Positions 2,498 to 59,675 are shown, counted from the stretch's first letter. The stretch: 64,000 nt of DNA from Chiloscyllium plagiosum (GCF_004010195.1 NC_057724.1:40448165-40512164), one strand, 5' to 3'. Numbers and translations: made by a program. The notes: generated from the letters alone by a model not told the origin.

Positions 2498-2789
2498 TGA
2501 TGATACAATGAACAAAAGATTGGGGAACGGAGAAAATGGCTGAAAATAGCCCTGTCTACCTTTTCTGTTTTTAATAGTGGGAAATGTAGGCATGGGTGCC
2601 AAACCATAGATCACTCTTCAGTGTTATGGCCAGAGTGCCTTTTAGTACAGGTTCTTTCAGAACATTGGTTAGGCCACTTGTGGAATATTGGGTGCAATTC
2701 TGGTCTCCTTCCAAACAGAAAGATGTTGTGAAACATAAAAGGGTTCAGAAAAGATTTACAAGGATGTTGCCAGGGTTACAGGATATGAG

Positions 2790-3001
2790 ATGGAAATGTG
2801 TTGCTGGAAAAGCGCAGCAGGTCAGGCAGCATCTAGGGAACAGGAGAATCGACGTTTCGGGCATTAACCCTTCTTCAGGAATCAGGGCTAATGCCCGAAA
2901 CGTCGATTCTCCTGTTCCCTAGATGCTGCCTGACCTGCTGCGCTTTACCAGCAACACATTTCCATCTCTGATCTCCAGCATCTGCAGACCTCACTTTCTC
3001 C
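2790..3001 (+). mobile_element. Palindromic Penelope-derived mini-insert (copy A)
   Basis: 85-bp arms at 2787-2871 and 2884-2968 (2 mismatches, 12-nt spacer), 33-nt unpaired tail, 14-bp TSD ttacaggatatgag at 2776-2789 and 3002-3015. Confidence 0.9.
2848..2881 (-). ncRNA. Minimal type I hammerhead ribozyme motif
   Basis: Minus strand reads ttc-CTGAAGA-A-GGGT-taat-GCCC-GAAAC-GTC-gat: intact core, stem II, palindromic ACGT stem III, GUC site. Confidence 0.75.
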
Positions 3002-3754
3002 TTACAGGATATGAGCCTATGGGGATAGACTAAATGGGATGGGGCTGTTTTCCCTGGAGCATCTGAGGCTGGGGGCGGGGTGGGTGGGGGGGCTTATAGA
3101 GGTTTATAAAATCATGAGGGGCAAGAATTGGGTAAATAACAAGGTATTTTCCCCTGGGTGGGGGAGTCCAGAACTAGAGGGCATAGGTTTTGGGTGAGAG
3201 GGGAAAAATTTAAAAGGGACCTGAAGGGCAACTTTTTCACGCAGAGGGTGGTGTGTGTATAGAATGAGCTGTCAGAGGAAGTTGTGGAGCCTGGTACAAT
3301 TGCAACATTTAAGAGGCATCTAGATGGGTATATGAATAGGAAGGGTTTTGGAAGGATATGGGCCAAGTGCTGGCAAATGGGACTAGATTAGGTTAGGATA
3401 TCTGGTTGGCACGAATGAGTTGGACCAAAGGATCTGTTTCTGTGCTGTACATCTCTGTGACTCTAAGACTCTATACATGTCCACAGTTTTTGTGGATTCA
3501 TGCCAGGTTATTAAAAGGTTGTGGTTTACAGCAGATTAAGAGTGTCATGTGCTCTAGTCTGTATAAGGAAACCTTTGGAGAGATAATTTCAAATGATCTT
3601 CCTCATGCACCCCAAGCTAAAGTAAGCTCCCTGAAATAATTCAAATGACCCCTCATAGACCCCACCATGACAATATATTTCCATACACATACATCTACTA
3701 TACATAGGAGGGAAGCAGTGAACCTTGCCATGTCAGTTGGGAGAATGAAAAATA

Positions 3755-4775
3755 AAACTTACAAATACTGTGGATATTTGGACTCTGAAATAAAACTAAA
3801 AAGTGCTAGAGAAACTCCGTGATCTAGCAGCATCTCTGAAGAGGGAACCAATTAATGTTGAGTCTTAGATCACTCTTCATTGGAACTGAAAGAAGTTGGG
3901 AATTTTTTTTTTTATATTGTTGACAGAAGAGGGGCAAGTGGAATAAATTATAAGAATGCTTAGAGCCAATAACACTTTCCCAAATTGTATTCTGTCTGCT
4001 ACTTCTTTGCTCACTCTCCAAGCTTGCCCAAGTCAGCTTCCCAGCCTTCTCAACACTACATGTCCCTCCACCATATTTGTGCTATCTGCAAATTGAGCAA
4101 CAATGCACTCAGTTCCTTTTTCCAGACCAATGAAGGGAGGAAAGGGATGTAAAAAAGGGTGTAAATTAAAATGTAAAAAGGAGAAAAACGAGTCTGTTGT
4201 GTTAAGAGCAAAGTTAGCAAAACACAAATGAGTCATGACTGCGTGTGAGGGGTGGGTGTGGAGCAACATTCTCCCTAAGCAGTGTGCATGTGACTATTCC
4301 AAAGTTTTGCACAAAGTGATCAGTATCAACATGTCAATCAGGCATTGACTTCTGGTGTCAGAGGTCACCAGATATGTGTAAAATTTGGAGACCTGCACAA
4401 CTGGTAAGAATTTTGAGAACATTCTGGTGGGGAGGGATTGGAGGATTTTAAAAAAGTAGAGAATACAATAGTCATGTTCTGAAGTTTTAGAATTCAATAT
4501 TGAGTCCTAGAGATTGTAAGGTGCCCAAGTGAAAATGAGGTGTTGTTCCTCTAGCTTATCCTAGACTTGTTGGAACTGAGTACCAGGTCCAGGATGGAAA
4601 TACTTGCAAGAAGCAAAGTGGTTTATTGAAAAGTGAAGCAAATGGAAGGTCAAGGTCCTCCCTTCAGCCAAATTGGAAGTACTATTTTCCCTTCACCACC
4701 TTTAATGACCTCTTCCTTTTTTGGCTCTGAGCACCCTTACAATTTGTTCCACTTACTTCTCCTCCTTCTCTGTCT
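3755..4775 (-). mobile_element. Old Penelope-like (Neptune-type) 3' fragment with start of an inverted arm
   Basis: Minus strand 4490-4560 encodes DKLEEQHLIF/LGTLQSLGLNIEF (one frameshift), a PLE GIY-YIG C-terminal motif; 3927-3971 is inversely repeated at ~4720-4775; the arm appears to resume at ~10915-10995. Confidence 0.7.
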
Positions 4776-4776
4776 A

Positions 4777-5560
4777 CTGGTCTGGATGAAGGAACTGAGG
4801 GCATTATTGCTCAGCCTGCAGGAGGCACAAATAGAGGTGGAGGGACACATAGTGTTGAGGAGGTTGGGAGGCTAATTTGGTCAAGCTAAGAACGTGGGCA
4901 AAGAAGTAGCAGATGGAATACAATGTGGGAAAATGCGAGATTATGCACTTCGATAAGAAAAATAGAAGCATAGACCAATTTTTAAATGTGGAAAGACTTG
5001 GGAAATCTAAAGAACAAAAGGACTTAGGTGTCCCAGTTCAGGATTCTCTTAAGATTAACATGTAGGTTCAGCTGGCAGTTAGGAAGGCAAATGAAATGTT
5101 GACATCCATTTCAAGATGGCTAGAATACAAAAGCATGGATGTACTCTGTGGCTGTTTAAGGCCCTACTCAGTCTGCATTTGGAATGTTGAGAGCAGTTTT
5201 GCCCGCATATCTAAGGAAGGATGTGCTAGCCTTTGAGGGAGTCTAGAGAAGTTTTACAAGAATTTACCCTGGGATGAAGGACTTGCCAGATGAGGTGTTG
5301 ATAAGGACTCTGGGTTTGTATTCGACTGAGTTTAGAAGGATAAGAGGGATCTGATAGAAATTTACAGAATACAAAGAGGCCTGTATAAAGTGGACATGGA
5401 GAAGGTGTTTCTACTAGTAAGGGAGACCAGAACCCAATGACACAGCCTCAGAGTGAAGGGACAACACTTCCGAACTGAGAAGTAGAGGAATTTCTTCAGT
5501 CAGCGGGTGAATCTGTGGAACTCATTGTCACAGAAGACTGCGGAGGCCAAGTATTCAGTT
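4777..5560 (+). mobile_element. CR1 LINE 3' part (resumes ~10770-10910 after the L1 insertion)
   Basis: QMEYNVGKCEIMHF, FRTEK*RNFFSQR; CR1 3' UTR continues at 10770-10910 (taaggggatcaagagttacggg...aatgggctgaatggcct). Confidence 0.85.
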
Positions 5561-8500
5561 ATTTTTAAAAATTTATATTTTTATTGAAAGACATTTTTAC
5601 TCTTTTTACAAAAAAAATATTAAAATGCAAAGATACAGAAGAATAGAGATAATACAGCATTATTATATTACCATAGTATTAACAATAAACTATCCACTAG
5701 TCTACAGGGTACCATTGTTTCATACTTAACTCAAGTTAAATTAAGAACAAATAAAATAAAATAAAATGAAATTAGATTCATTACTCCACTCGCTGCACCT
5801 CCACTGAAGCTCCTGTCCATGGGAGCAACAGTTGTTATACACAAATTTACTAAGCCTCCCCTCCCTAGGGTCCCTGAACCTCCAAACCTGGTCCTCACTG
5901 CTGTATAAAGGCCCTAATCAGTATCGCTGATAGATCCGTATCTGTGTAATTTAGAAAGGGCTGCCATATCTTGTAAAATTGCTCCGTGCTATGGTGCATC
6001 ATATTTGTAAGATAGTCTTGGGTGACATGCTCCATCATAAGTATACACCCCATAAGACCTGTTTTTTTTCCTGATATTAGAATGTTCTTCCTAGCACAGT
6101 GCGTAAGAATGTTAAATAACCATGTTCACCAGAGAGAGCAGATTCATCAATCCCAAAAGAACGGCTACTGGGTCCGGGTTAACTTCAATTCCCAGGATCC
6201 TCCCCAGCTCATTCACCATGGCACCCCAGTGTCCATGAATCTTGTGGCAGGACCAAAAGCAATGTATAAGGGCGCCTGTGCTAATTTTATATTTGGGACA
6301 TTCTGCAGAGGATCCTTTCTTAAACTTTGCTAACCTCTCTGGTGCCATATGGGCCCTGTGAAGAATCTTCAATTGCATAGCTTGTGCTTTATTGCATATT
6401 GACATTTTCTTCACATTCTCCCATATATTCTTCCATGTTTCCAATTAGATTTTTTCTCCTAGTTCCTGATTCCAAATTCCAGGGATTCTCTCCATATCTC
6501 CCAAGGCGCTCCCTCTCTGTAAATGGCGTATGGTACTGACTGAGAGAGCGCCCCCCCCCCTCCCCTCCCCCAACCAGAGCACTCTTCTCTCTATGTCTGA
6601 CTTGTAGGGTTGAGCCAAGAGCATGGATTTCTTCTGTATATAATCCCTAACCTAAAAATATCAGAAGAGGTCCCTAATAGGTATCCTGTATTTCTGACTT
6701 AACTGGTTAAAAGACATCAAGACTTCTTCCTCAAATAAATCTCCCAAACAGAAGATTCCCTTACCCTCCTGTGCTTTGAAACCGGAGTCTATTGACCCCA
6801 GCCTAAATCCTGGGATTCCCAGTAATGGGGTGAAGGCAAGGTCTTAAGCAAGTTGCCCTTACTCTGCCACATTATTCTCCATGCTTTCACCATAATTAAG
6901 ATAATTGGGCCCTCACAATGCTCAACCATGGACCTCATCTTGATTATAAACAATAAATTAATGAGGGGACACCTTGCCTGTGAGGCCTCGACATCAAGCC
7001 ATATCGACCTTGAGTCCCTATGCACCCAGTCACCCACATATGACAACAGGGCAGTACCCTTTCCAGCCTCAGGACCAGGACCTTTGATAAAATTTTGAAG
7101 TCTACATTCAATAACAAGATGGGTCTGTACAAGGCACAATCCTCAGGGTCTTTCCCTTTCTTTAAGATGAGGGAGATATTGGCTTCCCTAAGGGAGGGTG
7201 GAAGGCAGTCCTTGCTATACGAGTGACTATACATCCCCAGGTGTGGCTCAGCCAACATGTGTATAAACGCCTTGTAAGACTCACCCGGGAACCCATATGG
7301 CCCAGGTGCTTTGCCACTTTGGAGCTGCCGTACTGCCTCCTGCATTTCTTATATCGTCCGGGGTGCACTTAAAAGGGAGGCCTGCTCTTCATTTGTACCA
7401 GGGAGTAACAGGTTTTCAAAACACGATTCCATTCTTGCTACTCCATCCTCGCAGCCCTCCGACCAGTATAACTTTGCCTAGAATTTTCAAAATCTAGCAT
7501 TAATCTTTTTCAACTCACGGGTGATGGCACCAGCTCTCTCCCTAATAGATATAATAGACTGCGGAGCACTTTTCTTCCTAACCAGATATCTTCCTAAGCC
7601 AGGTATCTAACCGGCTTATCCCCATATTTGAACAACCTTTGCTTTGCAAAGGAGACCCCTCTCTTCACCGCCTGCATGAACACTGAATCCAGTGCAGCCC
7701 AGAGAGCCATGACTCGCTGTAATCTCACCACAGATGGCCTGTTATAATATGCCAACTCAGCTGCCTTCAGCCAGGACTTAAGCAACCGCTGCTGCTCCCC
7801 TCTCTGTCTCTTTCTAGTTGTTGAATATGAGATAATCAGACCCCTTAAATACACCTTGGTGGTCTCCCAAAGCACCGATGGATTATTGGCCGTGCTCCAA
7901 CTGATGCCCCAGAAAGCCCTGAACACTCTTGTGTGGTACTCTACAAAGTTGCTATCCCTCAGCAGAAATGGATCCATGCACCAGTGCTGTGTGTCTGTCC
8001 CACTATCCTTAATCTTGACATCCAAGTACATTGCCGCATGGTCTGAAATAGTTATGTTCCCAATCCTGCAGGCCAACATTGAGTCCAAAAAAACCGATGG
8101 AGTAAAGAACATATCAATTCTCATGTAGGATTTGTGTAGGTTGGAGTAGAAGGAAAAGTCCCTCCCATTATAGTGGAGACAACTCCATAAATCCATTAAC
8201 CCCAACTCCTTTCACAAGTCCACTAGCAGTCTAGATTGTAGGGGTGCACCTGACAGATCCTTTGGCATCCTATCCACCCCAGGGTCCATGAGACAATTAA
8301 AGTCTCCCCCTATAATTGTACAGTGTATCTCAAGACCCATTAATTTAGAGATTGTGTCAACTAAAACTTTGAGAGGGTGCACCGGGGGACAATAAACGGT
8401 GAGGATGCCATACTCTTCTCTGTGTATCAGAGCATTAAGAATGATGAATTGTCCAAGCTCATCCTTGATTTGAGCTATCATCTGAAATGGAAGGTTCCTT

Positions 8501-10690
8501 CGTACCAGTATGACCAATCCTCTACATTTAGAGCTGAAGGAGGAGAACAATATCCTATACATTCCCCCGCTGTAACTTCAAATGTTCCCTATTAGTTAAG
8601 TGTGTCTCTTGCAGCAAAGCGATGTCAACCATTTCCTTCTTAAGGTTTGACATCGCCTTTTTTCTTTTAATGGGGGAAGGGCTCCCTTTTATACTCCAGG
8701 TGCAGTATCTGAACAGATCACTAGCCATGATCGCCCACTGCAGCCCGTGCTCCCCCACGAGGAAGAAGCCCAATCAATGTACAGCGAGTAGAAAAAAAAT
8801 ACAAGACTTTATAAAATCTAAAAACTATCCATACAAACACTAACAAAACTATAAAAAACTAACCACTACACTCAAAGCATAAACCACAAGAGATCTTCCT
8901 CCTCGCCCATAGGGGGCATTCACTCCAAACCTTACAGCTATCCTAGTTCCTTCCAGCTAAGGCTGCATACCAAACCCAGGCAATGCACAGAGAGAAAAAA
9001 AAAACATTGTATACACTCATGGAAGTTAACAATGGACGTCCTTCCCTCCTCCTCCATATCTCAATTCCATACATAGAGTCATAGAGACGTACAGCGCAGA
9101 AATAGACCCTTCAGTCCAACCCATCCATGCCGACCGATATCCCAACCCAATCTAGTCCCACCTGCCAGCACCTGGCCCATATCCTCCAAACCCTTCCTAT
9201 TCATGAAACCATCCAAATGCCTTCTAAATGTTGCAATTATACGAGCTTCCACCATTTCCTCTGGCAGCTCATTCCATACACGCACCACCCTCTGTGTGCC
9301 TTAGATCTCTTTTATATCTTTCCCCTTTCACCCTAAACCTATACCCTCTAGATCTGGACTCCCCCACCCCAGGGAAAAGACTTTGTCTATTTATCCTATC
9401 CATGCCATTCATGATTTTATAAACTTCTATAAGGTCACCCCTCAGCCTCCGACGCTCCAGGGAAAACAGCCCCAGTATGTTCAGCCTCACCCTATAGTTC
9501 AAATCCTGCAACCCTGGCAACATCCTTGGAAATCTTTTCTGAACCCTTTCAAGTTTCACAACATCTTTCCGATAGGAAGGAGACCAGAATTGCACACAAT
9601 ATTCCAAAAGTGGCCTAACCAATGTTCTGTACAGCCACAATATGACCTCCAAACTCCTGTACTCAATAATCTGACCAATATAGGAAAGTATACCAAACAC
9701 CTTCTTCACTATCCTATCTACCTGCAACTCCACTTTCAAGGAGCTATAAACCTGCACTCCAAGATCTCTTTGTTCAGCAACACACCCTAGGACCTTACCA
9801 TTAAGTGCATAAGTTCTGCTAAGATTTGCTTTCCCAAAATACAGCACCTCACATTTATCTGAATTAAACTCCATCTGCCACTTACTTCTCAGCCCATTGG
9901 CCCATCTGATCAAGATCCCATTGTAATCTGAGGTAACCTTCTTCACTGTCCACTACACCTCCAATTTAGGTGTCATCTGCAAACTTACTAACTATAGCTC
10001 TTATGCTCACATCCAAATCATTTATATAAATTATGAAAAGTAGTGGACCGAGCACCGATTCTTGTGGCACTCCACTGGTCACAGGCCTCCAGTCTGAAAA
10101 ACAACCCTCCACCACCACCCTCTGTTTTCTACCTTTGAGCCAGTTACACAAAAGAAGTAACCACTCCTCACCCAGAAAAAAAAGAACAGTGAAATAAGAG
10201 ATAATTTGGCCCAATTAAGTTATTTGAGCAAGTTCAGAAAATCTTTAGTCTTTTCCGCCAAGTTAAAATTACAAATGGATCCACCATGATTAAAACACAA
10301 TACTGCCAGGTACCTCAGATAATATTGAATATTCAAGCCTGTTAGTTTTTTCTTAACATCATCAAAATATTTCCTTTTATTAATTATTGCCCCAGAAAAG
10401 TCTTGAAAAACATTATTCTCGGACCTTTATATACCAGAGCCTGTGGATCTCTTCCCAGTCATCTGGAGGCTTCTATTATTAACTGCTTTTTTAAAAAATA
10501 GTGCTGGAGTTGAACTAGGACTTGGAGGGGGGCACTGATCTGACCCAGACCTGCGCACGTGATCCGGTGGGCCCGCTCCACCCTCACTCAGCACGACTGA
10601 ATCTCTAGCCCCAACAACTTCAGGAGCCACTTCTTCAGGAACTTGACCGGATTGTCGCCCTCCTCACACTCCGGACGATCCACTACATTT
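5561..10690 (-). mobile_element. L1/Tx1-clade LINE, decayed, internally deleted, interrupted by CR1
   Basis: APE endonuclease motifs (TWSIKG, IALLQETHL, IIGGDFN, RIDMF, ISDHA), RT start (GKAPGPYGFP, YRPILLLNVDFKILSKVL), C-terminal CPK...IHCFWSC, ORF1-like C-terminus ~10230-10430, T-rich tail at ~5561-5610. Confidence 0.9.
9071..10145 (-). mobile_element. Younger CR1 LINE 3' kb nested in the L1
   Basis: ORFs 9966-10214 ([31 protein letters not shown]) and 9269-9946 (LEYCVQFWSP, LERRRLRGDLIEVYKIM); tail at ~9071-9087. Confidence 0.95.
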
Positions 10691-11213
10691 AAGTTTTTCC
10701 TCCCACCTCAATTCTCGAGGTCATCAACTTGGTCCAGCAGGGCCTGAACCTGGCCTTCCAGAGTTCGCATTGAGTGTATTTAACATAGCAATAGATAGGT
10801 CTTTGATTAGTAAGGGGATCAAGAGTTACGGGTAAAAGAAAGGAGGGGTTGAGCAACATATCAGCAATGAGCAGAGTCAATGGGCTGAATGGCCTAAGTC
10901 TGTTCCTATATCTTCAGGTTTTGTATTACATTAACACTGTTTCTCTCTCCACAGAAGCTGCAGATCTACTGAGTTTCTTGAGAATTTTTTTTGCGAGAAG
11001 GGATTCATTCATAATGTTTCAATTTGTTAAAAGAATTTTTTTTATTACAGTGCAATAGAAGTGTCAGAAATCCAAACCCTTTGAAGTTTTATTAGCTAAA
11101 ACCATAAAGAAATATGAAACCACTGTAAGCATCAATTATGAAATGGATGGAGATGAAGGCATTGAGTATAAGGATAGACAAGTTAAGCTGCAGCTTTGTA
11201 GAACTTTAATTAG

Positions 11214-11425
11214 CTGAAACTTTATTGCTGGAACAGCACAGCAGGTCAGACAGCATCTAGGGAAAAGGAGATTCGACGTTTCGGGCACATGCCCTTCCTG
11301 AGGAAGGGCATGTGCCCGAAACGTCGAATCTCCTTTTCCCTAGATGCTGTCTGACCTGCTGTGCTGTTCCAGCAATAAAGTTTCAGCTTTGATCTCCAGC
11401 GTCTGCAGACCTCACTTTCTCCTCG
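11214..11425 (+). mobile_element. Palindromic Penelope-derived mini-insert (copy B)
   Basis: Perfect 88-bp arms at 11212-11299 and 11301-11388 around one G, 37-nt tail, 14-bp TSD agaactttaattag at 11200-11213 and 11426-11439. Confidence 0.93.
11295..11328 (+). ncRNA. Minimal type I hammerhead ribozyme motif
   Basis: ttc-CTGAGGA-A-GGGC-atgt-GCCC-GAAAC-GTC-gaa: stem I ttc/gaa, intact core, stem II, ACGT stem III; predicted cleavage after C11325. Confidence 0.8.
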
Positions 11426-11830
11426 AGAACTTTAATTAGGTCATGCATGGAATATTGCATACAGTTCTGGTCACCACACCACCAGAAGGATGTGTTGCCT
11501 GGTAGGGGGGATTTTAGCTATGAAGACTGGTTTGTTTTCACTGGAATGCAGGAGGTTGAGGGGTGCTTTAATAGATGTTTATAAGATCATGATTAGCATG
11601 GATACAGTGGGAAGTACTAGGGTGGAGGGGTCAATTATTAGCGGACACAAGTTCGAATTGTGAGGCGGGAAGTTTTAAAGCAATGTGCAAGACAGGTTTT
11701 TCACATATAGGGTGATGAGTGTCTGGAATGCGTTGCCAGAGGAGGTGGTAATGGCAGCAGTCACAATAGCAGCATTCAAAGAAGGACCCGGACAAATACT
11801 TGAATAGGAAGGGAATAGAGGGATATTGAT

Positions 11831-15622: not shown

Positions 15623-17854
15623 GTGGGAGTATTCCATCACACTCCTGACTAGTATGCCGTGGATGGTGGCCATGCCTTGGGAAGTCTGGTGAATTACTTG
15701 TGGTAGAATGTCCATCCTCTGATCTCAATAACGACTGATCTTATCCATTTGCCTAAGTTAGATAGGAGACCTTCATCCCTGAATGATTTAATCACAGGTT
15801 CCAAATGTAAATAGTCCAGGATAGATACCTGAAGTGTGTCATAGATGGTTATTGGGCTCATGAATTAAAGCTTTTAACATTGTTGAGTGCTATTTTGCTG
15901 CTGTTTATTTTGAAGCTACTCAATTCCATTTCTGCTAAAAGGAAGAATTTATCACCATTGGTGTCAATTCAGATATTATTATCTGAATGCTTGGCTGCAA
16001 ATCTGTGAGCTAACTAGCCCACATTTCGCATGGTCAGCTAATTTGAATGGTTATTTGTTATATAGCTTTGGCCTTGTGCAGGGAGCAAACTTAATAGGTG
16101 ATGTGGAAACATGGCTACTGTCCAAATCAAATAGAGATGTGTATTTAATGTAAGTTTCAACATATTGTGATCAATATTTGCCAACCTTTGCTAATAATCG
16201 GGGGCTTGAAATAATGGGTATAAATAAAATGAAATCAAATGCAAAATGGAAACAAAAAAAATTCTGAAACGAAATTATACAGATATAGTATCTGATCTTC
16301 AGTTTCTATAGTATCTAACTGAGGAAATCAGCATGAATTCATTCAAACAGGGCTTCAGCACTTCAGTGCACTCTCTATAATTAGGAGCATTACATTGTTC
16401 TTGGTATCAGGTGGTGAACAGATTCAATGCCTTGTACACATTTATTACTCCCCCATGCAAACTCTCATTAATCTCTTTGTGCATGCCACACAAATGTAAT
16501 TTAATAGGGTGCTCCTTCAGCGATGTAATATATAATGCCAAGCTCCAACACATCGTCTTAAGACATAATGCCTTACATTATTGTAAAACAACATAGTTAC
16601 ATAAGGTATAGTAACCAATTGACTCTCAACAAGGTTATGAATGGTTTGTCAATGTCTATGTACTCTTCACTTCCAACTCTTCAAGTCTACGTTCATCAAG
16701 TTATGTGTAGCCTAGTGACAAACTGCTTGTATTAGTGCAGTGTAACCAAGACCTGAGAATCTTGGGGGAATGGCGCTGGGAAGGTTATTCCAACGCCAAA
16801 AATATTAAACATCAGTTTCCTTCATGCTACGCAGAATGAACTGTCACATCAACACCGCTAGTGCTAACTGTGGAGCCTTCTAGATAAAAATCCTGGTCTT
16901 AACCACTATAAGACTTTTATGGATGTAACCATATCCTGGCCTGAATGAGGTGAGGTCTGGTGAGAAATGTGACAGAACTTCATAGCAAGTCTCGTGAGGC
17001 CTCTCCAGTCTTGCAGTTAACTTGCTCTATTCTTTTTTAATCCAGGTTTCTGATGACATGGTGATATTTCTGCTAGGGAGACGAGTTGCCTGTTGAGGGG
17101 ACTTATTGCTTGTTAACAACCTGATAAACTGTACATCTGACCTCATTAATATTCCGCTTCGTATGCTACCACCTATCACAAGTGAACAAGACCATGAAAT
17201 TCTTGACATGAATGTCGACCGATAGGGGTTCATCTAATCCTCTTATTAAGAGTGTGCTCTGTATTATGCAAAACAAAAGGAGGCAATGGATATATATGTG
17301 TACATTTTGTTCATTTTTCCTTATTTCCTCATGTTTTTAGGTACATTGTGTTCTACTTTCATAAAATACCTTGCTCTTTAAAACCGTTTCAAGATGTTCC
17401 TTTGCTAACATTCTGCATTCCTGTAAGTTGACACACTGGTGGTGTCAGAATACAGCTTGCAGACCCAGTCAAGTGTTTCACAGTTCTACATCTATCACAC
17501 TGGCAAGTAGATGCAGGTACAGACACAACTGTATTACACAGAAACGTTAGTGATTGGCAGCAGGTAGAATTTCACATCACCTGTGATCATCTGAGGAGCT
17601 ACCTCAAGCTGCTGCATTCAGACTTTTAGGTTTGGTGTGGCTTGCAAATACATTTTGATGGTGCACTTTCCTAGGGCATAGAGTCATTGAGAATGTGCCA
17701 AAGAGCCAGTATACTGTGAGAAATCTATAATGTGTACCTGCAGTTTTAAAGGGCAATTTAAGATGCAGACCAGTAATGAGAATTTGGCTGAGATCCTAAG
17801 CTTAGTTTCTTAGTGAATGCTGAATGTAGCTTCTCAGGTTTGAACCTAAAGCAG

Positions 17855-18053
17855 GTGAAAGTGATGACTGCAGATGCTGGAGATTAGAGTGGTGCTGGAA
17901 AAGCACAGCAGGTCAGGCAGCAGCCGAGGAGCAGGAAAATCAACGTTTTGGGCAGGAGCTCTTCATCAGGAAAGGGCTCCTGCCCGAAATGTTGATTTTC
18001 CTGCTCCTTGAATGCTGCCTGACTTGCTGTGCTTTTCCAGCACCACTCTAATC
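17855..18053 (-). mobile_element. Palindromic Penelope-derived mini-insert (copy C)
   Basis: ~83-bp imperfect arms at 17881-17963 and 17972-18054, tail on the left, TSD ttgaacctaaagcag / ttgagtctaaagcag (17840-17854, 18054-18068); decayed hammerhead CTGATGA...AAAACGTT on the minus strand. Confidence 0.88.
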
Positions 18054-18532
18054 TTGAGTCTAAAGCAGCCTGTCATGTCCAGAATTATGTCAAAAATCAT
18101 CTTGAGACAGTGAAATGTTTGAAATCAATTTATTACTGCCTAATTTATTCTTGTCCGTTAATTTATGGGTGTTTCCAGTAGCAGATAAAAAGAAAACGAG
18201 CTGGTACAGATAATCATGACTTCTCCCTGGGAAATGACAGATATATTGAACAGGACCTGAATGGCAAGAACTGCACAAGAAGTCTAGTGAGGCCTAACAT
18301 GTTGATGCAAGTAACTTATCACATCTTTTAACCAAACTCTGGGTGCTGCGGCCAGATTTATGCTAGGGAATGGAGAGTTGCCTGTTAGGTGGATTGTTGC
18401 TTATTAACAACACATCTCACCTAATTAATAGGCAGCTTCCTATCCTACCACTTCCTGCAGGCAAATGAAATGCTAGGAATTTGAAGTGAAGTTGGAGCAG
18501 CTACCTGGTGACTTAAGTTCGCAGCTTACTAT

Positions 18533-19156: not shown

Positions 19157-22100
19157 ACCTCCCCCTTTAAAAATGAACCATCAATATCCAAAGATGGCTT
19201 CACTTTTCAAAACCCCAAAAAATAGCGGCTCGTACCCAAAAACACACATATACATTCACTGACTATAAACATGCAAACATGCACAACTACATTCAGATTC
19301 AGTCTGTGGTCCTCCCCTACCGAACCCCTCTGTTTCTCATTCGAGTTTTGACAATTCAGCAAGCACGTTTTCTGGTCCTGCAACATGCACAATTTTCAAA
19401 TTGAATGGGTATAACAACAGGCTCCATCTAAACAGTCGAGCATTTTTGTCCTTAAATTTCTCCACAAACTTCAATGGGTTACGATCAGTGTATAGATTGT
19501 CTTAGATGTGTTGCCGGTAATATAAAATTGAAATGTTGTAATGCCAACACCAAATTCTTTTTCAACTGTGAAATATTTCTGCTGATGAATATTCAACTTC
19601 CTGGAGAAATATCCGATGGGTCTTTCTATCTTCTCATTGTCTTCCTGTAAGAGCACAGCACTGACACCCACATCACTCACATTGATTGCCACCTTGAAAG
19701 GCTTTGCTTAATTGGGTATGGCTAATGCCGGGGCAAGGGTTAACACAGTTTTCAGATTGTCAAATGCCTTCTGATAGTCCACTGTCCATTGAAACGTCTT
19801 TCCACTCTTTAGCAATTCGGTGAGTGAAGCAGCCACACTGCTAAAATGCAGCACAAACTTTCAAGAAAATCCACTCAATCCCAGGAACAGTAGTACTACT
19901 CTTTTTGTTGATGATATGGGAAATTCCCCAATTAATTTTGTTTTCGCATCCCATAGGCCATTTGTCCGTGTCCAATAAAATGGTCCAAGAAGGTGACTTG
20001 GGGTTTGGCAAATTCACTTTTAGCTAGGTTTACCACCAAGTCTGCCACCAATTCCCCCACTCTATTTGATTGTTTTCTAAAATTTGACACATAGTCCAAA
20101 TGCATGGTCTCTAAACTTTGACTTACTAACTTCTCCTTAATCAATTTTAATTGTTTTAACAGACTTGGTGATCGAACAAGTCTGATAAATATTGTAAATG
20201 TTCCTTCCATGAGTGACTAAAAATCACCAGATCATCGATATACGCCACAGAGTTGGGTAACCTGGCAGTGGCCTTACTGGTTAGTTTCTGAAATGTGGCC
20301 GGGGCCATGACTTTAAACCAATACAGTCCATTTGGCATTACAAAAGCCGAAATTGCCTTTGCTCTTTCTGACAAAGGTACCTGCCAGTAGCCTCTGAGCA
20401 AGTACAACTTATAAATGTAAATTGCTTGTCAGACCTTTTTCAACACAGTCTTCCAACCGCGGAATTGGATATGCATCAGTCTTTGTAACTGCATTGACTT
20501 TGCGACAGTCTACACATAACCATTGGGTACCATCTGGCTTTGGCACCATTACTATGGGTGATCTCCAGTCAATGTAGCTCACTTTGATTATGTCATCTTG
20601 GAGTATGCGTTCAACCTGTGCTAACTTCAGAGGGTTATGCCTATAAGGATGTTGCTTAATTTGAACAGTATATCCTATATCTACATCATGCACAATTAGG
20701 TTAGTACTTCCCAGTTTATTTCCACAGATCTCCCCATGTGATAGCAATAACTCTTTCAGGTCATTTGATTTTTCTCAAGAAGGTAACTCAATAATTTATT
20801 CCAATTTTTGACAAGTTCTTCATTGTCCAATTTAATTTGAGGAATGTCCAATTGAGAATCCTCTGAACTTGGTTCTTCCCTTTGTGCTGTAATCATTAAC
20901 ACCTTCTCCTTTTGCTTTCCTTCCCTGTCAAAATATCTTTTGAGCATATTCACGTGACACATTCTGTGAGATTTCTTTCTATCTGGAGTCCCTATCAAGC
21001 AGTTCACCTCACTCAATCTCCTTTCAATTCGATAAGGTCCACTAAACCTTGCTTTTAAAGGTTCACTTATCAGTGGAAGTAACACTAATACCTTATCCCT
21101 GACAGCAAAATTGCAAATTGTTAATTTATTGTCTATTTCCTGTTTCATTGCATGCTGCAATATTTTTAAGTGCTGTCGAGCCAACTCCCCCACTCTATTT
21201 GATTGTTTTCTAAAATTTGACACATAGTCCAAATGCATGGTCTCTAAATTTTGACTTACTAACTTCTCCTTGATCAATTTTAATGGTCCTCTCACTTCAT
21301 GCCCAAAAACTGATTCAAATGGACTGAATTTGGTTGATTCATTTGGTGCATCTCTGATCGCAATAAAGTACAAACTGAATTCCCTTATCCAAATCATCTG
21401 GATACTCCTGACCGTAAGGCCTCAACATGATCTTTAGTGTTTGATCTCACCTTTCTAGTGCTCACTGTGATTCTGGATGGTACGCAGTAGATTTTAATTG
21501 TTTTATTCCTAAGTTGTCCATAACTTCCTTGAATAGTTTGGATGTGAAGTTTGACACTTGATTTAACTGTATCTCTATTGGTAGTCTGTATCTAGTAAAT
21601 AATTTGAGTAATTCCTCTACAGTCCTTTTAGCTGTGATATTGTACAATGGGACAGCTTCTGGAAATCTAGTCGATACATCCATTATTGTTTGAGGTAGGG
21701 GAACCTACACAATCAATTAAGACTCTTGTAAGAGGTTCCTTAAATGCTGGAATAGGTATTTCCAAAGTTGCAGGTTTTATTACTGCCTGTGGTTTTCCAA
21801 TTACGACATGTATGACACGTCTGGCAAAATTCAACTAAATCTTTCTGCAGTCCAGGCCAGTAAAAATGTCTTTGTATTTTAGCCAGTGTTTTCCTCACTC
21901 CTAAATGACCTCCAAGTGGTAGCTCATGTGTCACTTGTAACACTTCCCTTCTATAACCCACTGGTAAGACAATTCAATGAATTTATGCCCATTTCTCATC
22001 TGCTTGAATCTGTGATGGTCTCCATTTCCTCATTTAAGACATCATTTTTCAGGTAATAACATTTAGGGTTACATTCAGATTCCTTCTCTGTAAGTACCTT

Positions 22101-26530: not shown

Positions 26531-27069
26531 TGGCATATAGAAGGATGAAGCTAGAATTAGGCAAGAGTGGTGCTATGGGTGGATGGTAGTTAATGAGAAG
26601 AGTTTGGTTGATACAATGAGACAACTTGCAGAGAAGAATCCTCTGTAAAACTAAATGCAATGGACTGAAGGCAAACACACACACACAAGATTCAGTCCTT
26701 TATGTCCATTGAGAAAAAGACTGTGTTTGAGAGCCAGCCAATCCCTGTTACCTCATCATGATTCAGTGCCACTCCCATCAAAATCCAAAAAGATTTAAAA
26801 ACTCCCTCAAAACATATAGCATAGCATTTCCATTATACGTGTACTAATAAAAGAAAATCAAAAGCAACTGAGTCCAAGTTAGATGTTTAACTATTTAATT
26901 AACACCATTCGATCCCTCATAGCTAAATACACATCTAACTGGAGAGGGGTAAGAGAGGATATTAACTGGACCTGGTGAAAAGGACAAAGTGCAACAAGGT
27001 ATACTTTGGGAAGGTGAACCCGATAGACTATGAGGTAAAGCAGTGGTGATCTCACAAATTTTTCAGCCA

Positions 27070-28452
27070 AGAACATAAAACATAGAACAGTACAGGCTGG
27101 AAGAGCAAGAGCAAGGGTCTGATTCTCACACACACTTTGGCCCTCAATGTTGCGCCGACCCCTCTCCAGTTAGATGTGTATTTAGCTATGAGGGATCCAA
27201 TGGTGTTAATTAAATAGTTAACCATCCAACTTGGAGCTCAGTTGCTTTTGATTTTCTTTTATTAGTATACATATAATGGAAATACCAATCTGAAGCCCAT
27301 CTAACCTACACTATTCCATGTATGTTCATATGCTTGTCTAGTGAGGACTTAAATGTACTTAAAGTTGGCGAATCTACTACCGTTCCAGGCAAAGCATTCC
27401 ATACCCTTACTCTGAGTAAAGAAACTACCTCTGACATCTGTCCTATATCTATCACCCCTCAATTTAAAGCGATTTCCCCCTTGTGTTTGCCATCATCATA
27501 CTTGGAAAAAGGCTCTCCCTGTCCACCCTATCTAAACCTCTGATTATTTTATATGTCTCTATTAAGTCACCTCTCAACCTTCTTCTTTCCAATGGAAACA
27601 GTCTCAAGTCCCTCAGCCTTTCCTTGTAAGACCTTCCCTCCATACCAGACAACATCCTACTAAATCTACTCTGCACCCTTTCCAAAGCTTCCACGTCCTT
27701 CTTATAATGCGGTGACCAGAACTGTACACAATACTCCAACTACCTCTGACATCTGTCCTATATCTATCACCCCTCAATTTAAAGCGATTCCCCCTTGTGT
27801 TTGCCATCATCATAGCTGGAAAAAGGCTCTCCCTGTCCACCCTATCTAAACCTCTGATTATTTTATATGTCTCTATTAAGTCACCTCTCAACCTTCTTCT
27901 CTCCAATGGAAACAGTCTCAAGTCCCTCAGCCTTTCCTTGTAAGACCTTCCCTCCATACCAGACAACATCCTACTAAATCTACTCTGCACCCTTTCCAAA
28001 GCTTCCACGTCCTTCTTATAATGCGGTGACCAGAACTGTACACAATACTCCAAATGCGCCCGTACCAGAGTTTTGTACAGCTGTAGTATAATCTTGTGTT
28101 TCCAGAATTCGATCTCTCTATTAATAAAAGCTAAAACACTGTCAACCTGTGTGGCAACTTTCAAGGATCTGTGTAACTGGACACTGAGATCTCTCTGCTC
28201 ATCTACACTACCAAGAATCTTACCATTAGCCCAGTACTTTGCATTCCGGTTACTCCGACCAAAGTAAATCACCTCACACTTGGCCGCATTAAACTCCATT
28301 TGCCACCTCTCAGCCCAGCTCTGCAGCGTATCTATGTCTCTCTGTAACTTACAACATCCTTTGTCACTATCCACAACTCCACCAACCTTAGTGTTGTCTG
28401 TAAATTTACTGACCCACCCTTCTACGCCCTCACCCAGGTCGTTTATAAAAAT
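27070..28452 (-). mobile_element. CR1 3' part with internal ~315-bp tandem duplication and two templated inserts
   Basis: ORF 27613-28374 (WQMEFNAAKCEV, LEYCVQFWSP, RRLRGDLIETYKII); same subfamily as 11831-12941. Confidence 0.93.
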
Positions 28453-31400: not shown

Positions 31401-31599
31401 ATAATGAATATAATAAAATAATAAAGTATTAAAGGTAGTCTGAAATATGTTAAAATGGCATGGACAAATTGCCCTCTTGTTTGCCTTCCACCACCAGACA
31501 ATGCAAAATAGTATTTTTCTTGGAGATAAACTTATTAATATTAGCCAATTCAACTTGTTGGACTTACTCACCCTCTGGTATGCTTAGTGGTTTCCATCT

Positions 31600-32005
31600 C
31601 TTTAAATGTAGATGTTATGGATGTAAAATATGAAGAAACAAAAACATAAAATGGATTGCACCACATGCTAAAGGTACGTAAAAAGGAAAGGATTAGCAAA
31701 GAAAAATATGAGTCATGAGTGTGGTGCTGGGAAAGCACAGCAGGTCAGGTAGCATCCAAGGAGCAGGAAAATTGATTTTTCAGACATAAACCCTTCATCA
31801 GCTCATTCCTATGAAGGGCTTATGCCTGAAACATCAATTCTCCTACTCCTCAGATGCTGCTGTGCTTTTCCAGCACCACACTCTCGACTCTGATGTCCAG
31901 CATCTGCAGTCGTCACTTTCTTCAAAGAAAAATATGAGTCTGTTACAGGTAGAGACAAGATAATTTATAACATAAGTGAAGAAATGGCAGAAAACTACTC
32001 AAGTA
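31600..32005 (+). mobile_element. Decayed CR1 ORF2 mid fragment containing palindromic insert D
   Basis: YVKRKGLAKKNMSLLQVET...EEMAE reads across the TSD and resembles the CR1 pre-RT region. Confidence 0.6.
31715..31922 (+). mobile_element. Palindromic Penelope-derived mini-insert (copy D), older
   Basis: Imperfect arms homologous to copies A-C, same tail, 18-bp TSD caaagaaaaatatgagtc at 31697-31714 and 31923-31940; decayed hammerhead motifs on both arms. Confidence 0.88.
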
Positions 32006-33559
32006 CTGTTATGACCCACCTGGGAAAGTGTGAAGACTCTCAAGCCTTTGCTACTCTTGGGGCTGCCACAAATCTAATAATCTGTTGAAAATGTACAAAG
32101 TTCCCAATTTCCCTGTCTGATAGAATCCAGTTTACAGACAATACTGTATCTACCTGTATCGACCAAGGACCTTTGGTTATTACAAACAACTACCTAAGTG
32201 TCAACATATAGCTGTACTATGGCTGTACTAATACTAACACTCTTTCAAATTTTTACTTACAGGCAGAAAGAACAAAATAAAAGTAACAGTGTTATGGATG
32301 GTTGGAAAAACATATTGGGAAACTCAATTCAATGGGATCATTCCACAGTGTTAGATGAAGTATTCCTTTTGTTTCTGAATACCTACCATTATTCAATCCT
32401 CTTTTTCATAAAGATCTTTTAGTTCTTCACTGGAAGCTCAGGACAATTGGTACATTAATTACTACTTCCCCTCCAAATAGTTCACCCGACCAGGAGTCAG
32501 AGATGCATCATCATGCTGATGACTTTTGGTCTCATTTGCAGAAAACAAAAGCTAATCACTCTCTGTGTATGCATCCTAATGATGTGCCATCTTACCTCAC
32601 CTCCCCACCTACTTGCAAAGAAGCAGTGTAAGCATAACTCACGGAGTTTGAGTAACTTGTTTTCAAAAGTTCAGCAATTCCTTCCGCAGTCTTTGGTTTT
32701 AAAACATTTGTTTTCCCCATTTCAGCCTACAACCAAAAATAAAGGGTAAAAAGATATGGTTTTTGTATGTCTCCAGTGTTATGAAGGTGTCGTGGAAATT
32801 AAATCAACTGTTAGCAAGAGCAAAGAAAAGAGCTTTATTCAGATTCTGCAGAATCGACCCAATATATTCGGCCAAATGCCTCATGTAAGGGGCACCTGAG
32901 CATAATTCAGATACTCTTCTTACAGCATTCTTATTACGCTCTCAAGAGCAAAGACTGGGAAGACTCAAGTTGTTATTTTCTCATCCCCTGGTCGTGGACA
33001 TAACTGTTCTTATGCTTTCCTCAGCCTTCACTGAATTCAACTGTCACAAGGTCAAGTTGAACATTTACAAAGTTCAAACAAAGACAGCTGTCTCCTGGCT
33101 GCAGAACTCAGCAAAGTATTGTTTGCAAAGCTCAGCATAGCGCTAAATTTAGAAAGGCATTCTCTTTTAGATTTCACTGTAAATGTTAAATTTGTTAATT
33201 TTCCATTACAAAAGGATAAAACACTATTTCCAACACAGAGTTTAATCACAAGGAATGTGATACACAAACAAAAAAAAATGAAACTTACATCCTTTCTTTC
33301 ACTTCATACACTTTATACAGCCATACATAATTTCTTAAATCTTGAATTTATTCCATCATTTTATGATTGGAGCAATGCATCCATGTTCACATTATCTTTT
33401 CCAGCAAAGTGAGGAGTCTTTACATTAAATGCTTGAAACCAGCTTCACATTTCAAGTATCAAACTTTTTCAATAAATGCCTAAATGAATCAATCAGTTAT
33501 TAGTGTAGATTTGTGACCATACTGGATGTGTATTTCAAAGTTTGAGACAATAATAATCT

Positions 33560-36500
33560 CAAAGTCTTTCTATAATGGAGTACTTCTTCTGAGGTTGATT
33601 TGATTTCTTAGAATTGTATCTCACTGACCTCTATTCTCAACTCATCCTGTAACAAGACTGCATCTACCTCCAAGTTGCTTGCATCATTCATCATTTTGAA
33701 AGGTGTAGAAAAATCAGGGGTGGCTAGTACAGTTTCATTTCTTAGGATTGCCTTCAGCTTCTTAAAGGCTGCCTGGCATACCACTTTTGCTGGTTTCCTT
33801 AACCAATTTATTCAAGATTACAGCAATTGTGCTGAAGTTGCACACAAAAACTGATAAAACCTAAAAATCTCATGAAATCCCATTTAATTTTAGCAACAAG
33901 GAATTTTAATAGAGCCTTCAGTTTCACTGCCCTTAGCCACAGTTGCCCTTGTCCTATTGTATATCCTAGGTAAGTTATTTTTGCTGTCACAACTTAGCTT
34001 TTGGTTAATTTGAATACAAAGCCAGTCAGCTGAAGTTGCTAAAACGGGTCTTCTACTTGTCTCACTTGTCTTCCCATGTCTCCCTATATATTTCAGTGTC
34101 CAAAGTTGCGTACCACAGGTGTGACTTGATTCATAAGCCTTTGAAATGTAGCTAATGAATTCTTTAATCTGAATGGCATAACTCTACATTGGTATAATCA
34201 ACTTGGTATGATGAAAGCAAATATTTCCGTCAGTCCTTGATGTTAATGGTACTTTCCAATCTTAGAAAGGAATGAAATATTGTCAACTCTATCGATGTAG
34301 ATCTAATTGTGGAATTGGGTACAAATCTAGTTTTCATTATTTCTGTGTTGGCAAATTGAGATTCACTTTGAAACTCTCCCTCACGTATTGACTCTATCAT
34401 CCTCTACTACACTTACCATCTCTCACTCTCTCTTATTCTCTTCCCCAAAATTATATCCTTTCAACATGTTTATGATGCAACTGATTCTTCTTCTTATGAT
34501 CAGGAGTTCATAATGGATGAGTTAAGTTAGTAACCCTCCTAACTATCTTATTGGGACCACTGAATTTTACTTTGAGTGGTTCACATTGCAAAAGCAAAAA
34601 TACTGATACTTCATCTCTTACTTGAAATGTTCTAATTGTAGTATGTGTGTGTGTGTTTGTCTATTCTTTCATTTTCACATGTGAAGCTTTAAACCACTGT
34701 CGTGTTACTTTAGGTTCTCCTATGAGAATATTGATGATTCATCTTCTTGTTCAAGAACATCTCCCTAATTAATCTTAATGGACTTTGTTTCTTATGACAA
34801 AAGATTGATTCAAATGGATTACATCTAGTAGCTTTTTTTTGTGATATTTCTGGTAGTAAATAATCAGAGGTGTAATTCTTTGTCTCAGTCCTGTGGATAT
34901 TTGTGACAGTTTTGAGAGTCTGATAGCATTGCCAAAGGTCCCTTTGTAGTTGATACACAGTTGTCTTATGCCCAAACAGCTGATAATGTTCTGGTAAACT
35001 TTTATCCTGATCGGATTGTATCTCAATTGACAATCCATAACAAATAAAATCTGATTTAACTTTTCCACTACCATAATGGTCCAAAAAAAAGCTTATGGAA
35101 ATCATATTGTCATATCCATTATTGTAAGGATATATTGATATTCTGCTTTCATTTTCATTAATGGTCCTACACAATCTATTTTCATGCAAATGAACAATTC
35201 TTCAAAAAATAAGAGATATCAAAGGTGCTGGTTTGACTACATATTGAGGTTTTCCTACTCTGTCATGTATGATACATTTTACAGAACTGCATTATGTCCT
35301 TTTGAAGTTTTGGCCATCAAAATGCCTGTTACTTGATATTTGTATTTTCGGTATTGCTTCATGTCTGCCATAAAAATGTTAAGAGCTACTTGCAATATCT
35401 CCATTTGATATCTGGGTGATACACTATTTGATGAATGGCTATTCATTCTTCCTTGGCAGGTCTGTGATGATGTCTCCACTTACTCATCAGAACTCAGTTT
35501 ATAAGACAGTAGCAATTGGAACTCCTTCAGCCACAACTTCAGTATGAGCTATGTGTGCTACCTTATTTAACTCTGCAACTGTTTTTTGAGCCTCAATTAG
35601 TGAAAACATGCCAAGCACCTCTTTTGAATTATTCTTATTCTTAAATAATGTTTTGGCGACTTGGATAACCTATTTGTGGTATTACTTGACCTTTGGTGAT
35701 CAGTTTTGTTTAGCTATCACTCTGATCACTTCACACAATTGAAAAATATACTGAACATACATGAAAAGCATGATGGCTCAGTGATTAGCACTGCTGCCTC
35801 ACAGTGCCAGGGACTTGGTTTGATTTCACCATCGGGTGACTGTCTGTATAGAATTTGCACATTCTCCTCATGTTTGTGTGGGTTTCCTCCAGATGCTCCG
35901 GTTTCCTCCCACAATCCAAAGATGTGCAGGTTGTGTGGATTGGCCATGCTAAATTGCGCATAGTGTCTAAGTGGATTAGCCATGGGAAATGAAGGGTTAC
36001 AAGGATGGGTCTGGGTGGTATGCTCTTCAGATGGTCAGTGTGGACTTGTTGGACTGAATGGCCCATTTCTGCACTGCAGGGATCCTATTCTATGAACATA
36101 GCTCTGTTTGGACTAAATCAACTCTGCCCACCACTTAACAGCCCTCACTTTCACTGATCCAGATAACAAGACACACTTCAGTTGGACTTTATACAATGGC
36201 ACAGATTATATTTTCCACCTATCCCATGTGCCAACACTTTGGCTTTCATTGAATTTTCTGGATCATAAACAAACTGCTTCTTCAGCAAAAGAGTTACAGT
36301 AGCCCCTGTATCCCTGTGTATAGTTATAGGTTTGGTTGCCTCATATGAAAAAAAGTTAACTTCCCTTTTCTCACAAACTCTTTATAACTCATCTTCTCTA
36401 CATACCTCTACAATCACATCATCATTTATCTTTGGTTTCTTAGCTGTCACGAAAGCTGCAACTTGATCCATGGCATTTTCCCTTAGAGTTCATTTTACAG

Positions 36501-37700
36501 ACTTATTTCTATGACCTCCAATAAGTCCCATGGATTTTTATCACAACTTCTAATATTCTGAATAAATGTGCTACAATAGAAACAATTTGGCCTTTGATTT
36601 TCACTTGAATCTTGAGTACTTTCTTTTCTCATTTCAGGAGGAGATATTGGGGCATTCCCACCTATTTTTCTTTACCTTGGCTACTTGCCGTCCTTTTACT
36701 GTCCCACTTTGAATCCCTTTTGAATTGATAAGGGTGATGGACGAAAGGTTAGTTTAATGGATCAATTCCTAATTGTCAGCAGTGGCTGCTGCCTGTCTAG
36801 CAGCTGTAATCCCTTGTTCTTTTTTAATCTCAACATGGATTTTTATTACAGAAGGTAGTGTGTTTTAAATTCCTCTAGCAGAATAATCTCCAAAGGACTT
36901 CCACACGTGGTTTCAGTTCCTAAGTTTCATAATTGTTAAATTACTTTCCTTAACCCTTTCAAATTCAATATACGTTTGCCAAGGTATTTGCCTTAAATTC
37001 TGAAACCTTTACCTACATGCCTCAGGAACTAAATCATATACAGCCAATATAACTCTTCTTACAGTGTAATAATCTCAAAAAACCTTCTGACAGTGAAGCA
37101 TCGATTTCTGATGCATTCCATGTCAAGTAATTCTAAGTGCATGTTCAATTTTATTTTGATAAAGTCATTTGTTTCAATTTGTCTCAAAGCATGTAGAATG
37201 CCTTCACATCTTTGCTCAAATTTTGGTAGGGCCTGTACAAACTTAAAAAAATTCCTTACCAGGCTTCAGATTATGATTTGACTATTTCCCATGAGAGCAT
37301 CTGATGTCGTCTTCTATTTCAACTGCATCATTTTAAGCCTAAATTCCCTATTTGTCTTTTCCTTTTTGCTCTGCAATTCTAATTCTAGTCTTCTCATTTG
37401 CCTTTCTTTAACTACTTCTGTTTGGAATTCCAACTCCAAATTTTATTTCAAGTTGCTTTAATTTTACTTAATATTCAAACTGTGACTTAATATCACCTGA
37501 TTCCAAAATTTCATTATCTGGAGAACCTGGCTTTTATTTCTATTAAACTCAAATGCTATGCTAGTACTTCAATTATGGCAACCTTCTTAGTTTTAGCAAA
37601 CAATTTCACTCCCCACTTGAATTCATCAGTTATTTTTGGTATAATTGAATACTGTCAAGGACAACTCTGCCACCTCCAGGAATTTTGTTGCAATTTCCAG
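33560..37700 (-). mobile_element. Second, older Gmr1-like Gypsy internal region
   Basis: SCAN-like gag (YDLVPEA..RFQNL..QTYIEFERVK, ~36950-37040), integrase remnants ~34800-35400, RT (YQCRVMPFRLKN..ATFQRLMNQV ~34125-34195; AKITYLGYTIGQG). Confidence 0.8.
35767..36093 (+). mobile_element. HE1-type V-SINE, diverged
   Basis: Colinear with the other HE1 copies. Confidence 0.88.
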
Positions 37701-37713
37701 TATCATTTCTAAT

Positions 37714-37900
37714 TCAAGACCATAAGAAATAGGAACAGGAATAGACTGTTCAATCCCTTAAGTCTTTTCTACCATCAATGGAATCATGGTTGAACGGCAT
37801 TCTTCACATCCACTTTCCTGCCCTTTCCCCATAATCCTTGATTCCCCGTGGATGAATAATCTATTTTAGCTTTCAAATATGAAAAAAGATCTCTGCCTCT
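37714..37900 (-). mobile_element. CR1 3' UTR fragment
   Basis: accataagaaataggaacagga...tttccccataatccttgattcccc; reverse complement resembles 51290-51445. Confidence 0.75.
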
Positions 37901-38194
37901 GTAGAATCTGGTGTTTTCTTTAACTTTATCACTCACTAATACGATCACTAAAATAATCTCTGATGAGCCCAAATCTCTTGTTATGAACCACCTAAGAAAA
38001 TCCATTGATTCTCCAGCCCCACAACACCTAATGTCACCTCATATGATATTGATTTAATCAAAGTCCCATGAGTGAGTAAAATAAAGTAAGCAAAGTGACT
38101 AATTTACCTGTCTGATTGAATCGGAGTAAAAGAAAATACTGACGACGTCAGATGCTCTTATGGGAAATATCCAAATCATAATCTGAAATAATTC

Positions 38195-38352
38195 GAACAT
38201 AGAACATTACAGCGCAGTACAGGCCCTTCGGCCCTCGATGGTTCCACAGGTTGGCGCAACAATCTGAAGCCCATCTATCCTACACTATTCCATTTTCTTC
38301 CATATGTTTATCCAATGACCATTTAAATGCCGTTAAAGTTGGTGAGACTACT
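38195..38352 (-). mobile_element. CR1 3' end fragment
   Basis: Reverse complement of the 12790-12941-type tail. Confidence 0.88.
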
Positions 38353-38366
38353 ACTGTTAAATTAAA

Positions 38367-38545
38367 AATTACACAACACCAGGTTATAGTCCAACAGGTT
38401 TAATTGGAAGCACACTAGCTTTCGGAGCGACGCTCCTTCATCGAAAGCTAGTGTGCTTCCAATTAAACCTGTTGGACTATAACCTGGTGTTGTGTGATTT
38501 TTAACTTTGTATACCCCAGTCCAACACCGGCATCTCCGAATCATG
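38367..38545 (+). mobile_element. Palindromic PLE-derived mini-insert of a different family (copy F)
   Basis: 63-bp arms at 38362-38424 and 38442-38504 (1 mismatch), 41-nt tail, 14-bp TSD actgttaaattaaa (38353-38366, 38546-38559); minus strand at the apex reads (tc)GATGA-A-GGAGC-gtc-GCTCC-GAAA-GCTA. Confidence 0.88.
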
Positions 38546-38639
38546 ACTGTTAAATTAAACTACTACAATTAAATTCTAATCACAAGTAAACAGTGTTCTA
38601 ATTTGTAAACATGAGCATTTAATATTAGAGCCCACCACT

Positions 38640-59649: not shown

Positions 59650-59675
59650 GTGTGGCTCTGACCTTGGAGTATCAC

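Follow-up and report, generated by a model that had tools for sequence, protein, structure and literature searches.

What fixes the point at which a short inserted hairpin folds back? The window considered here (the whole stretch of DNA analyzed, 64,000 nucleotides of Chiloscyllium plagiosum, GCF_004010195.1 NC_057724.1:40448165-40512164) raises this question, with five short inserts of which the fold-back points lie close to a hammerhead ribozyme motif. A sequence-only reading of the window had proposed that the ribozyme region sets where cDNA synthesis stops or turns back, or the size to which the hairpin collapses, and that the inserts are a ribozyme-delimited mobile unit, mobilized in trans.

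Hairpin inserts and hammerhead motifs in the window

The five inserts were verified at their places in the window, each with a target-site duplication (TSD), an inverted arm, an apex, an arm, and a tail of 26–41 nt on one side only (Table 1). Positions within the elements are counted in element sense, with C3 of the CUGANGA box as +1. The two arms of a pair are 75%–99% complementary, the longer arm ends at −3 (copy A), −2 (B and C), −6 (D), or +3 (F), and the five junctions are all different. Copies A to D represent subfamilies of one family (family A). Copy F gives no BLAST match to A–D, in agreement with the earlier statement that it is unrelated to them, and the five inserts, all of them stubs, come from two unrelated families of Penelope-like elements (PLEs). 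The single extra base of copy A is likely a copy of the cap (see below).

Table 1. Hairpin inserts of the window and their parts (positions from the first nucleotide of the window; signed numbers without a nucleotide position follow the C3 = +1 scale)
Feature	Position	Strand	Remarks
Copy A, TSD	2776-2789 (left), 3002-3015 (right)		14 bp
Copy A, tail-less arm	2790-2882	-	contains the complete minimal hammerhead (C3 at 2878) and stops at the putative start A (-3, 2882)
Copy A, extra base	2883	-	absent from the parent sequences of both arms; reads G in element sense
Copy A, second arm	2884-3001	+	from +8; includes the 36-nt tail, 2966-3001
Copy B	11214-11425		arm stops about +3 and -2; + arm from -2, C3 at 11298; arms overlap by 5 nt (11295-11299); AATAAA-bearing subfamily
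Copy B, TSD	11200-11213, 11426-11439		14 bp
Copy C	17855-18053		- arm stops at -2 (C3 at 17969), + arm begins at +7; tail on the left side (17855-17880)
Copy C, TSD	17846-17854, 18060-18068		9 bp exact; by eye about 15 bp, including 2 mismatches
Copy D	31715-31922		- arm to +1, + arm from -6; putative start A at 31805; older copy
Copy D, TSD	31697-31714, 31923-31940		18 bp
Copy F	38367-38545		- arm stops at +3, + arm begins at +21; tail 38508-38545
Copy F, TSD	38353-38366, 38546-38559		14 bp
Copy F, poly(A) signal ATTAAA	38462-38467	+	mirror copy 38399-38404 on -
Family G hairpin (third PLE family)	49345-50712		hammerheads at 49457 (-) and 50636 (+)
Family G hairpin, TSD	49334-49344, 50713-50723		11 bp

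Such an architecture is already standard for PLEs, as far as the accessible parts of three papers go (PMC3846280, PMC8557442, PMC4209133). The insertion unit of endonuclease-bearing (EN+) PLEs contains, in the sections available of two of them, a pseudo-LTR (pLTR), an inverted 5′-truncated copy, a tail of 30–40 bp, and a TSD (PMC3846280, PMC8557442); the head-to-head arms, the optional tail at one end, the TSD, the partial tandems, and the TATA/Inr-like motifs of the pLTR are shared with the elements described here. Unlike those units, most inserts here contain no ORF, and they end, with an extra G, at a single base that is specific to the family. In the same excerpts, truncation is read as variable, and one of the papers invokes antisense self-priming (PMC3846280, PMC8557442). 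Of the marks of an EN+ PLE, a pLTR with inverted or tandem copies, a tail of 30–40 nt, and a TSD were found, and the earlier description of the inserts as noncoding PLE products needing RT and EN in trans is right. An MRC1-like non-autonomous PLE would retain its promoter region and tail and form head-to-tail arrays; the five hairpins lack the upstream box.

A minimal type-I hammerhead was read by hand in the parents of families A, F, and G, with CUGANGA, stem II, GAAA, NUH, and a short stem I. Stem II stays paired across the loop variants of subfamilies and across families, but the Rfam models run on the window returned no hammerhead (only a sub-threshold miRNA-type hairpin and other chance matches), and there is no covariation within a family, since only the loop varies. 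The repeats do not fold better than their shuffles (z of −1.4, +0.9, and −1.3). The minimal hammerheads of metazoan PLEs, in the accessible text of PMC4209133, have likewise a minimal type-I core with a bulged base before stem II and are mostly solo, with some pairs 100–700 bp apart on opposite strands.

In the hairpin of family G, missed by the sequence-only reading, the arms are long, with endonuclease-like coding remnants, and the junction lies >400 nt upstream of the hammerhead, so that the coupling between apex and hammerhead is not universal. From their motifs, family A may be Neptune-like and family G Poseidon-like. At 39035-39130 there is a hammerhead stub with one arm only, old and diverged, that belongs to another PLE subfamily; it is within a retroelement-like ORF remnant (39006-39419) that has no Pfam match.

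Arm ends in the genome

The ends of the arms were counted in twelve blocks of the large chromosomes, picked regardless of content (1.12 Mb without N, in a genome of 3.56 Gb), leaving out arms that score <80 in family A or <70 in family F; one such filtering retained 177 of 216. The junction-bearing query of the first genome search is biased and was not used for apex statistics. In family A (n = 206), 54 ends lie at −4 to 0, 7 at −30 to −11, and 49 beyond −30; in family F (n = 65), 10 lie at −8/−7 and 15 beyond −30. A uniform spread of the apices along the parents had been named beforehand as speaking against the ribozyme. The spread is not uniform, the ends clustering at the 5′ edge of the motif, although ~24% of the arms run far upstream of it. 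The other contrary outcome named, a single apex shared by each family, is not the case. Both arms stop at or inside −12 in 44/57 head-to-head pairs of family A and 15/20 of family F, so that fold-back near the hammerhead goes beyond chance as in the five inserts, and within these short hairpins the combinations of ends are nearly always distinct (42/44 and 14/15), each apex being made anew. The unpaired arms (92 in family A, 25 in family F) have the same end peak as the hairpin arms.

Exact counts over the whole genome for one young family-A core give 20,828 matches to −2, 16,036 to −3, 11,646 to −4, and 7927 to −7, a fall that is partly due to mutation and subfamily variation. Among the first 100 matches listed that reach −3, 45 end at −3 to −6, and another 42 continue for 30 nt or more. 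The link between apex and hammerhead is real but probably indirect, the coupling being to the 5′ edge of the motif. Extrapolation from the 1.12 Mb of large chromosomes gives roughly 190,000 short hairpins (on the order of 10^5 copies); the stubs are real and very abundant, and of moderate mechanistic value. The 21 family-G arms listed are mostly long, and no pile-up of short arms at the ribozyme is seen among them.

A putative start-site signature and the probable joining of two arms

A TATA-like box occurs 31 nt before the family-A edge in 36/50 matches, with 40 different spacer sequences, and TATAAA occurs 30–32 nt before the family-F edge in 14/16 matches. The context of the family-A edge is initiator-like (Inr consensus). 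Between the two families, the stop moves along with the TATA spacing (−3 in A vs. −7 in F) and not with the edge of stem I (−3 and −2, respectively). The start and the stem I edge fall together in family A; only in family F, of which the edge is 5 nt past stem I, is the transcript start separable from the ribozyme structure.

The edge is also marked by an extra G. Just before it, where the parental base is C, a non-parental base is G in 2609 of 4390 cases genome-wide in family A (59%), as against 628 of 4792 (13%) at the control position one base further in. In family F, the corresponding figure is 513/590 (87%), also genome-wide. The composition of the genome or of the partner arm would give 25%–52% in family A and 26%–40% in family F (estimates with at least 5 cases); the excess is strong in family F and moderate in family A (59% vs. 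52% in the worst-case null). The single-arm copies of family A, taken alone, have G in 8/14 (p = 0.026). Most of these Gs are present in the partner sequence as well, many being templated by the partner arm or the TSD, and a minority are untemplated; an extra C at the end of the cDNA would aid joining and hence favor a G that matches partner sequence. In the parts of PMC11702581 available, full-length L1 5′ junctions contain an extra G coming from mRNA capping, and the PLE edge may work in the same way. Alternatively, the extra C could come from a terminal transferase activity of the RT, which needs no cap.

We consider it probable, at about three chances in four, that the hairpins are abortive PLE insertions in which short cDNAs run off the capped 5′ start of the RNA and are joined end to end. 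A capped Pol II start would lie at the edge A (−3 in family A, −7 in family F), just before the hammerhead. Both cut strands of the target would prime short cDNAs on the element RNA, and priming at its 5′-proximal tail would give strong-stop-like cDNAs of 90–125 nt that run off the cap. A hairpin with a variable apex would then result from two cDNAs that are trimmed and joined by microhomology, and a single-arm stub from one cDNA alone, with the ribozyme as a passenger at the transcript start. The reported in vitro behavior of Poseidon from Anolis carolinensis is similar, according to the accessible text: the PLE protein acts on the two strands of the target, which it cuts and extends, so that both are primed, two RT start sites bound the tail, and the hammerhead, near the ORF start, is dispensable as regards cleavage (PMC11167929). 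That study assumes a multi-copy mRNA and, in the same text, does not map where a capped start or a poly(A) site lies and does not discuss hairpin stubs. Counting against the abortive-insertion reading is family G, which has the layout of A and F (hammerhead and TATA box) and yet no pile-up of short arms.

The arms themselves favor independent priming. Of the 92 unpaired family-A arms of the 1.12-Mb sample, 43 carry the tail and the others are tail-less; hairpin pairs occur with two tails (5) and with no tail (11); and at one TSD-bounded hairpin (L099), the sole clear case among 85 pairs listed, the arms differ at five subfamily-diagnostic sites. With one such case, fold-back may still apply to most of the hairpins. 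The discordance between arms of L110 was set aside, its TSD pairing being ambiguous. Self-priming, where a single cDNA that has reached the RNA start turns back at a microhomology and serves as its own template for the second arm, is an unlikely alternative that has the capped-start step in common with joined abortive cDNAs. Microhomology at the apex is frequent, most hairpins have both arms of one subfamily, as fold-back synthesis also predicts, and such a mechanism, with antisense template, has been proposed for palindromic PLE junctions in the accessible part of PMC3846280. However, the tail-less single arms mean that the inner site primes by itself, hairpins with two tails exist, L099 contains two haplotypes, and some junctions have fillers or loops of 1 nt.

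That the ribozyme sets the end, self-cleavage generating the template's 5′ end or the RT stalling on the hammerhead fold, is quite improbable. It is true that two unrelated families have their ends clustered at the motif, the stop of family A is the 5′ edge of stem I, and the pairing of stem II is maintained as described above. Nevertheless, the cleavage site (+28 to +31) has no peak in the 1.12 Mb (5/206 arms in family A, 2/65 in family F), the stop is on the far side of the fold and in family F 5 nt past stem I, it follows the TATA spacing, unpaired arms share it, and an extra G is not expected of a stall; in addition, hammerhead mutants left insertion in vitro unchanged, in the available text of PMC11167929. 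The collapse of long palindromic insertions to about 200 bp by deletion of the center has very little in its favor: long family-A hairpins exist and the centers of palindromes are unstable, but the end is shared by single-arm copies, the edge on the 5′ side is sharp, shortness is already seen in young, near-identical copies, and the added G would be unexplained. It is still less credible that a MITE- or SINE-like hairpin master is copied as a unit. One junction recurs in many of the 30 loci found with the junction-bearing query; that query was biased, the recurrent junction is a hotspot of 3-nt microhomology, and the diversity of apices in the unbiased sample rules out a master for most copies. 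The hairpins lack the TATA-like region, and without this upstream box they are likely dead ends, dead on arrival. With neither this box nor a shared master apex in the short hairpins, the ribozyme-delimited mobile unit that was proposed is not supported.

The stub ends place the putative RNA start to the base and argue that cleavage by the 5′ ribozyme is not what ends the template. In the accessible sections of PMC4209133, cleavage and circles are proposed; the stubs here are read as coming from RNA uncleaved at the 5′ ribozyme.

Parent elements, polyadenylation, and long arms

The search for an autonomous partner, suggested with the sequence-only reading, led to an RT-coding parent with the family-A terminal repeat: at L109, a Pfam RVT_1 domain (E 2.5e-7) is upstream of a family-A arm and tail, across an assembly gap. 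The terminal repeat of the family-A parent has the order TATA-like box, ~30 nt, start A, hammerhead, arm, tail, and likely ORF start. Longer copies continue upstream for hundreds of bases, into a 3′ UTR and an endonuclease-like region that is broken and of which the C-terminal pieces may be GIY-YIG-like; the tail of some copies goes on into a stretch that has a likely ORF start after ~35 nt. Judged from its sequence, the family-A layout is that of a PLE pseudo-LTR. A 44-aa piece in the window has no Pfam match, and neither an intact ORF nor an intact full-length parent was recovered, the long copies falling in assembly gaps. A candidate long parent copy (L221) turned out to be a short tandem.

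For family F, a raw poly(A) single-cell run, possibly from a related species, was aligned to one repeat (L257:1381-1630). Matches were found in 2343 reads, mostly sense and with several sequence variants, so that more than one locus contributes. Poly(A) runs are present in 749 of the 2343, 336 at L257:1566 and 413 at 1569, and the read depth falls from 896 to 130 at this site; family-F repeats act as polyadenylation sites in these RNA reads (L257:1566-1569). The site is 66–69 nt from the putative start, 12–15 nt behind an ATTAAA/AATAAA hexamer (ATTAAA or AATAAA occurs in 110/118 family-F arms), and ahead of the two priming sites (at about +88 and +123). Among the family-F reads, no place where many molecules begin (a 5′ pile) was listed, and a sister raw run gave no reads matching the repeat. 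An AATAAA-like signal is absent from most family-A subfamilies. The working poly(A) signal of family-F repeats could end host transcripts.

Together with this poly(A) site, the stub ends put the hammerhead inside a short terminal redundancy. LTR retroelements have a U3-R-U5 organization, with the promoter upstream of the cap site, and make a minus-strand strong-stop DNA. By analogy, the family-F layout may work like an LTR-type U3-R-U5, with the poly(A) site inside the repeat and priming just downstream from the 5′ repeat; unlike in LTR retroelements, the target DNA is the primer, and neither an integrase nor a tRNA site is seen here. The Penelope of D. virilis has a TATA-less internal promoter, in the available part of PMC2377424. 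A literature search, with supplements, Repbase reports, and most subscription journals outside it, found no paper describing PLE stubs with ends defined by a cap G or a poly(A) site, none linking stub ends with a capped start and, with the same partial coverage, none placing a PLE poly(A) site before the priming sites.

About a quarter of the arms pass the putative start. Three sources are conceivable for these long arms: read-through RNA that has a 3′ tail, a jump to the 3′ repeat, and a circle made by the ribozyme, the last as proposed for PLE hammerheads in the accessible text of PMC4209133; with the stub ends, the three models become directly testable. Among the 123 long arms listed, there is no cap-G scar and there are no or very few U3/R recombinants, the U3-R haplotypes being tightly linked, which argues against a jump within the same molecule.

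A separate non-autonomous PLE unit, related to copy B, keeps the upstream region and the tail in a young head-to-tail tandem (L271-L300, e.g., L287 and L272; G000:C3:50036165). The order of this B-type unit is 69 nt of upstream region, hammerhead, arm, tail, and ~125 nt of the 5′ part of the element; 40/40 scored matches, of 1701 candidates, are 100% identical. One copy (L287) starts exactly at −3 and continues through two units. In 19 of the 21 copies with both tails in these arrays, the terminal tail differs from the inner one, which favors read-through and is again contrary to a same-molecule jump.

A wider reading can be offered tentatively, the odds being against it. The shark PLEs would be target-primed elements with a true U3-R-U5 terminus, strong-stop cDNA would be their obligatory first product, and full copies and partial tandems would arise via a jump to the 3′ repeat or a hammerhead-closed circle. 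The capped and polyadenylated mRNA would then have RT priming sites only near its 5′ end, and two hammerheads in R would close the circle. If true, the genome would contain hundreds of thousands of trapped strong-stop intermediates, and the regeneration of the pseudo-LTR would be explained.

Other features of the window include a remnant of an LTR retroelement (20759-21421, minus strand), with an integrase C-terminal/Tf2-like SH3 region, and two inverted pairs: a 126-bp repeat (26826-26950 and 27158-27283; 95% identical, ~210 nt apart) with no match to the PLE arms tested, and LINE-like fragments (3973-4129 and 4778-4935; 82% identical). An open frame of 425 codons (59535-60809, plus strand) has a Pfam 7tm_1 rhodopsin-family 7TM domain (E 2e-56) and, from this match, is probably a host single-exon GPCR gene.
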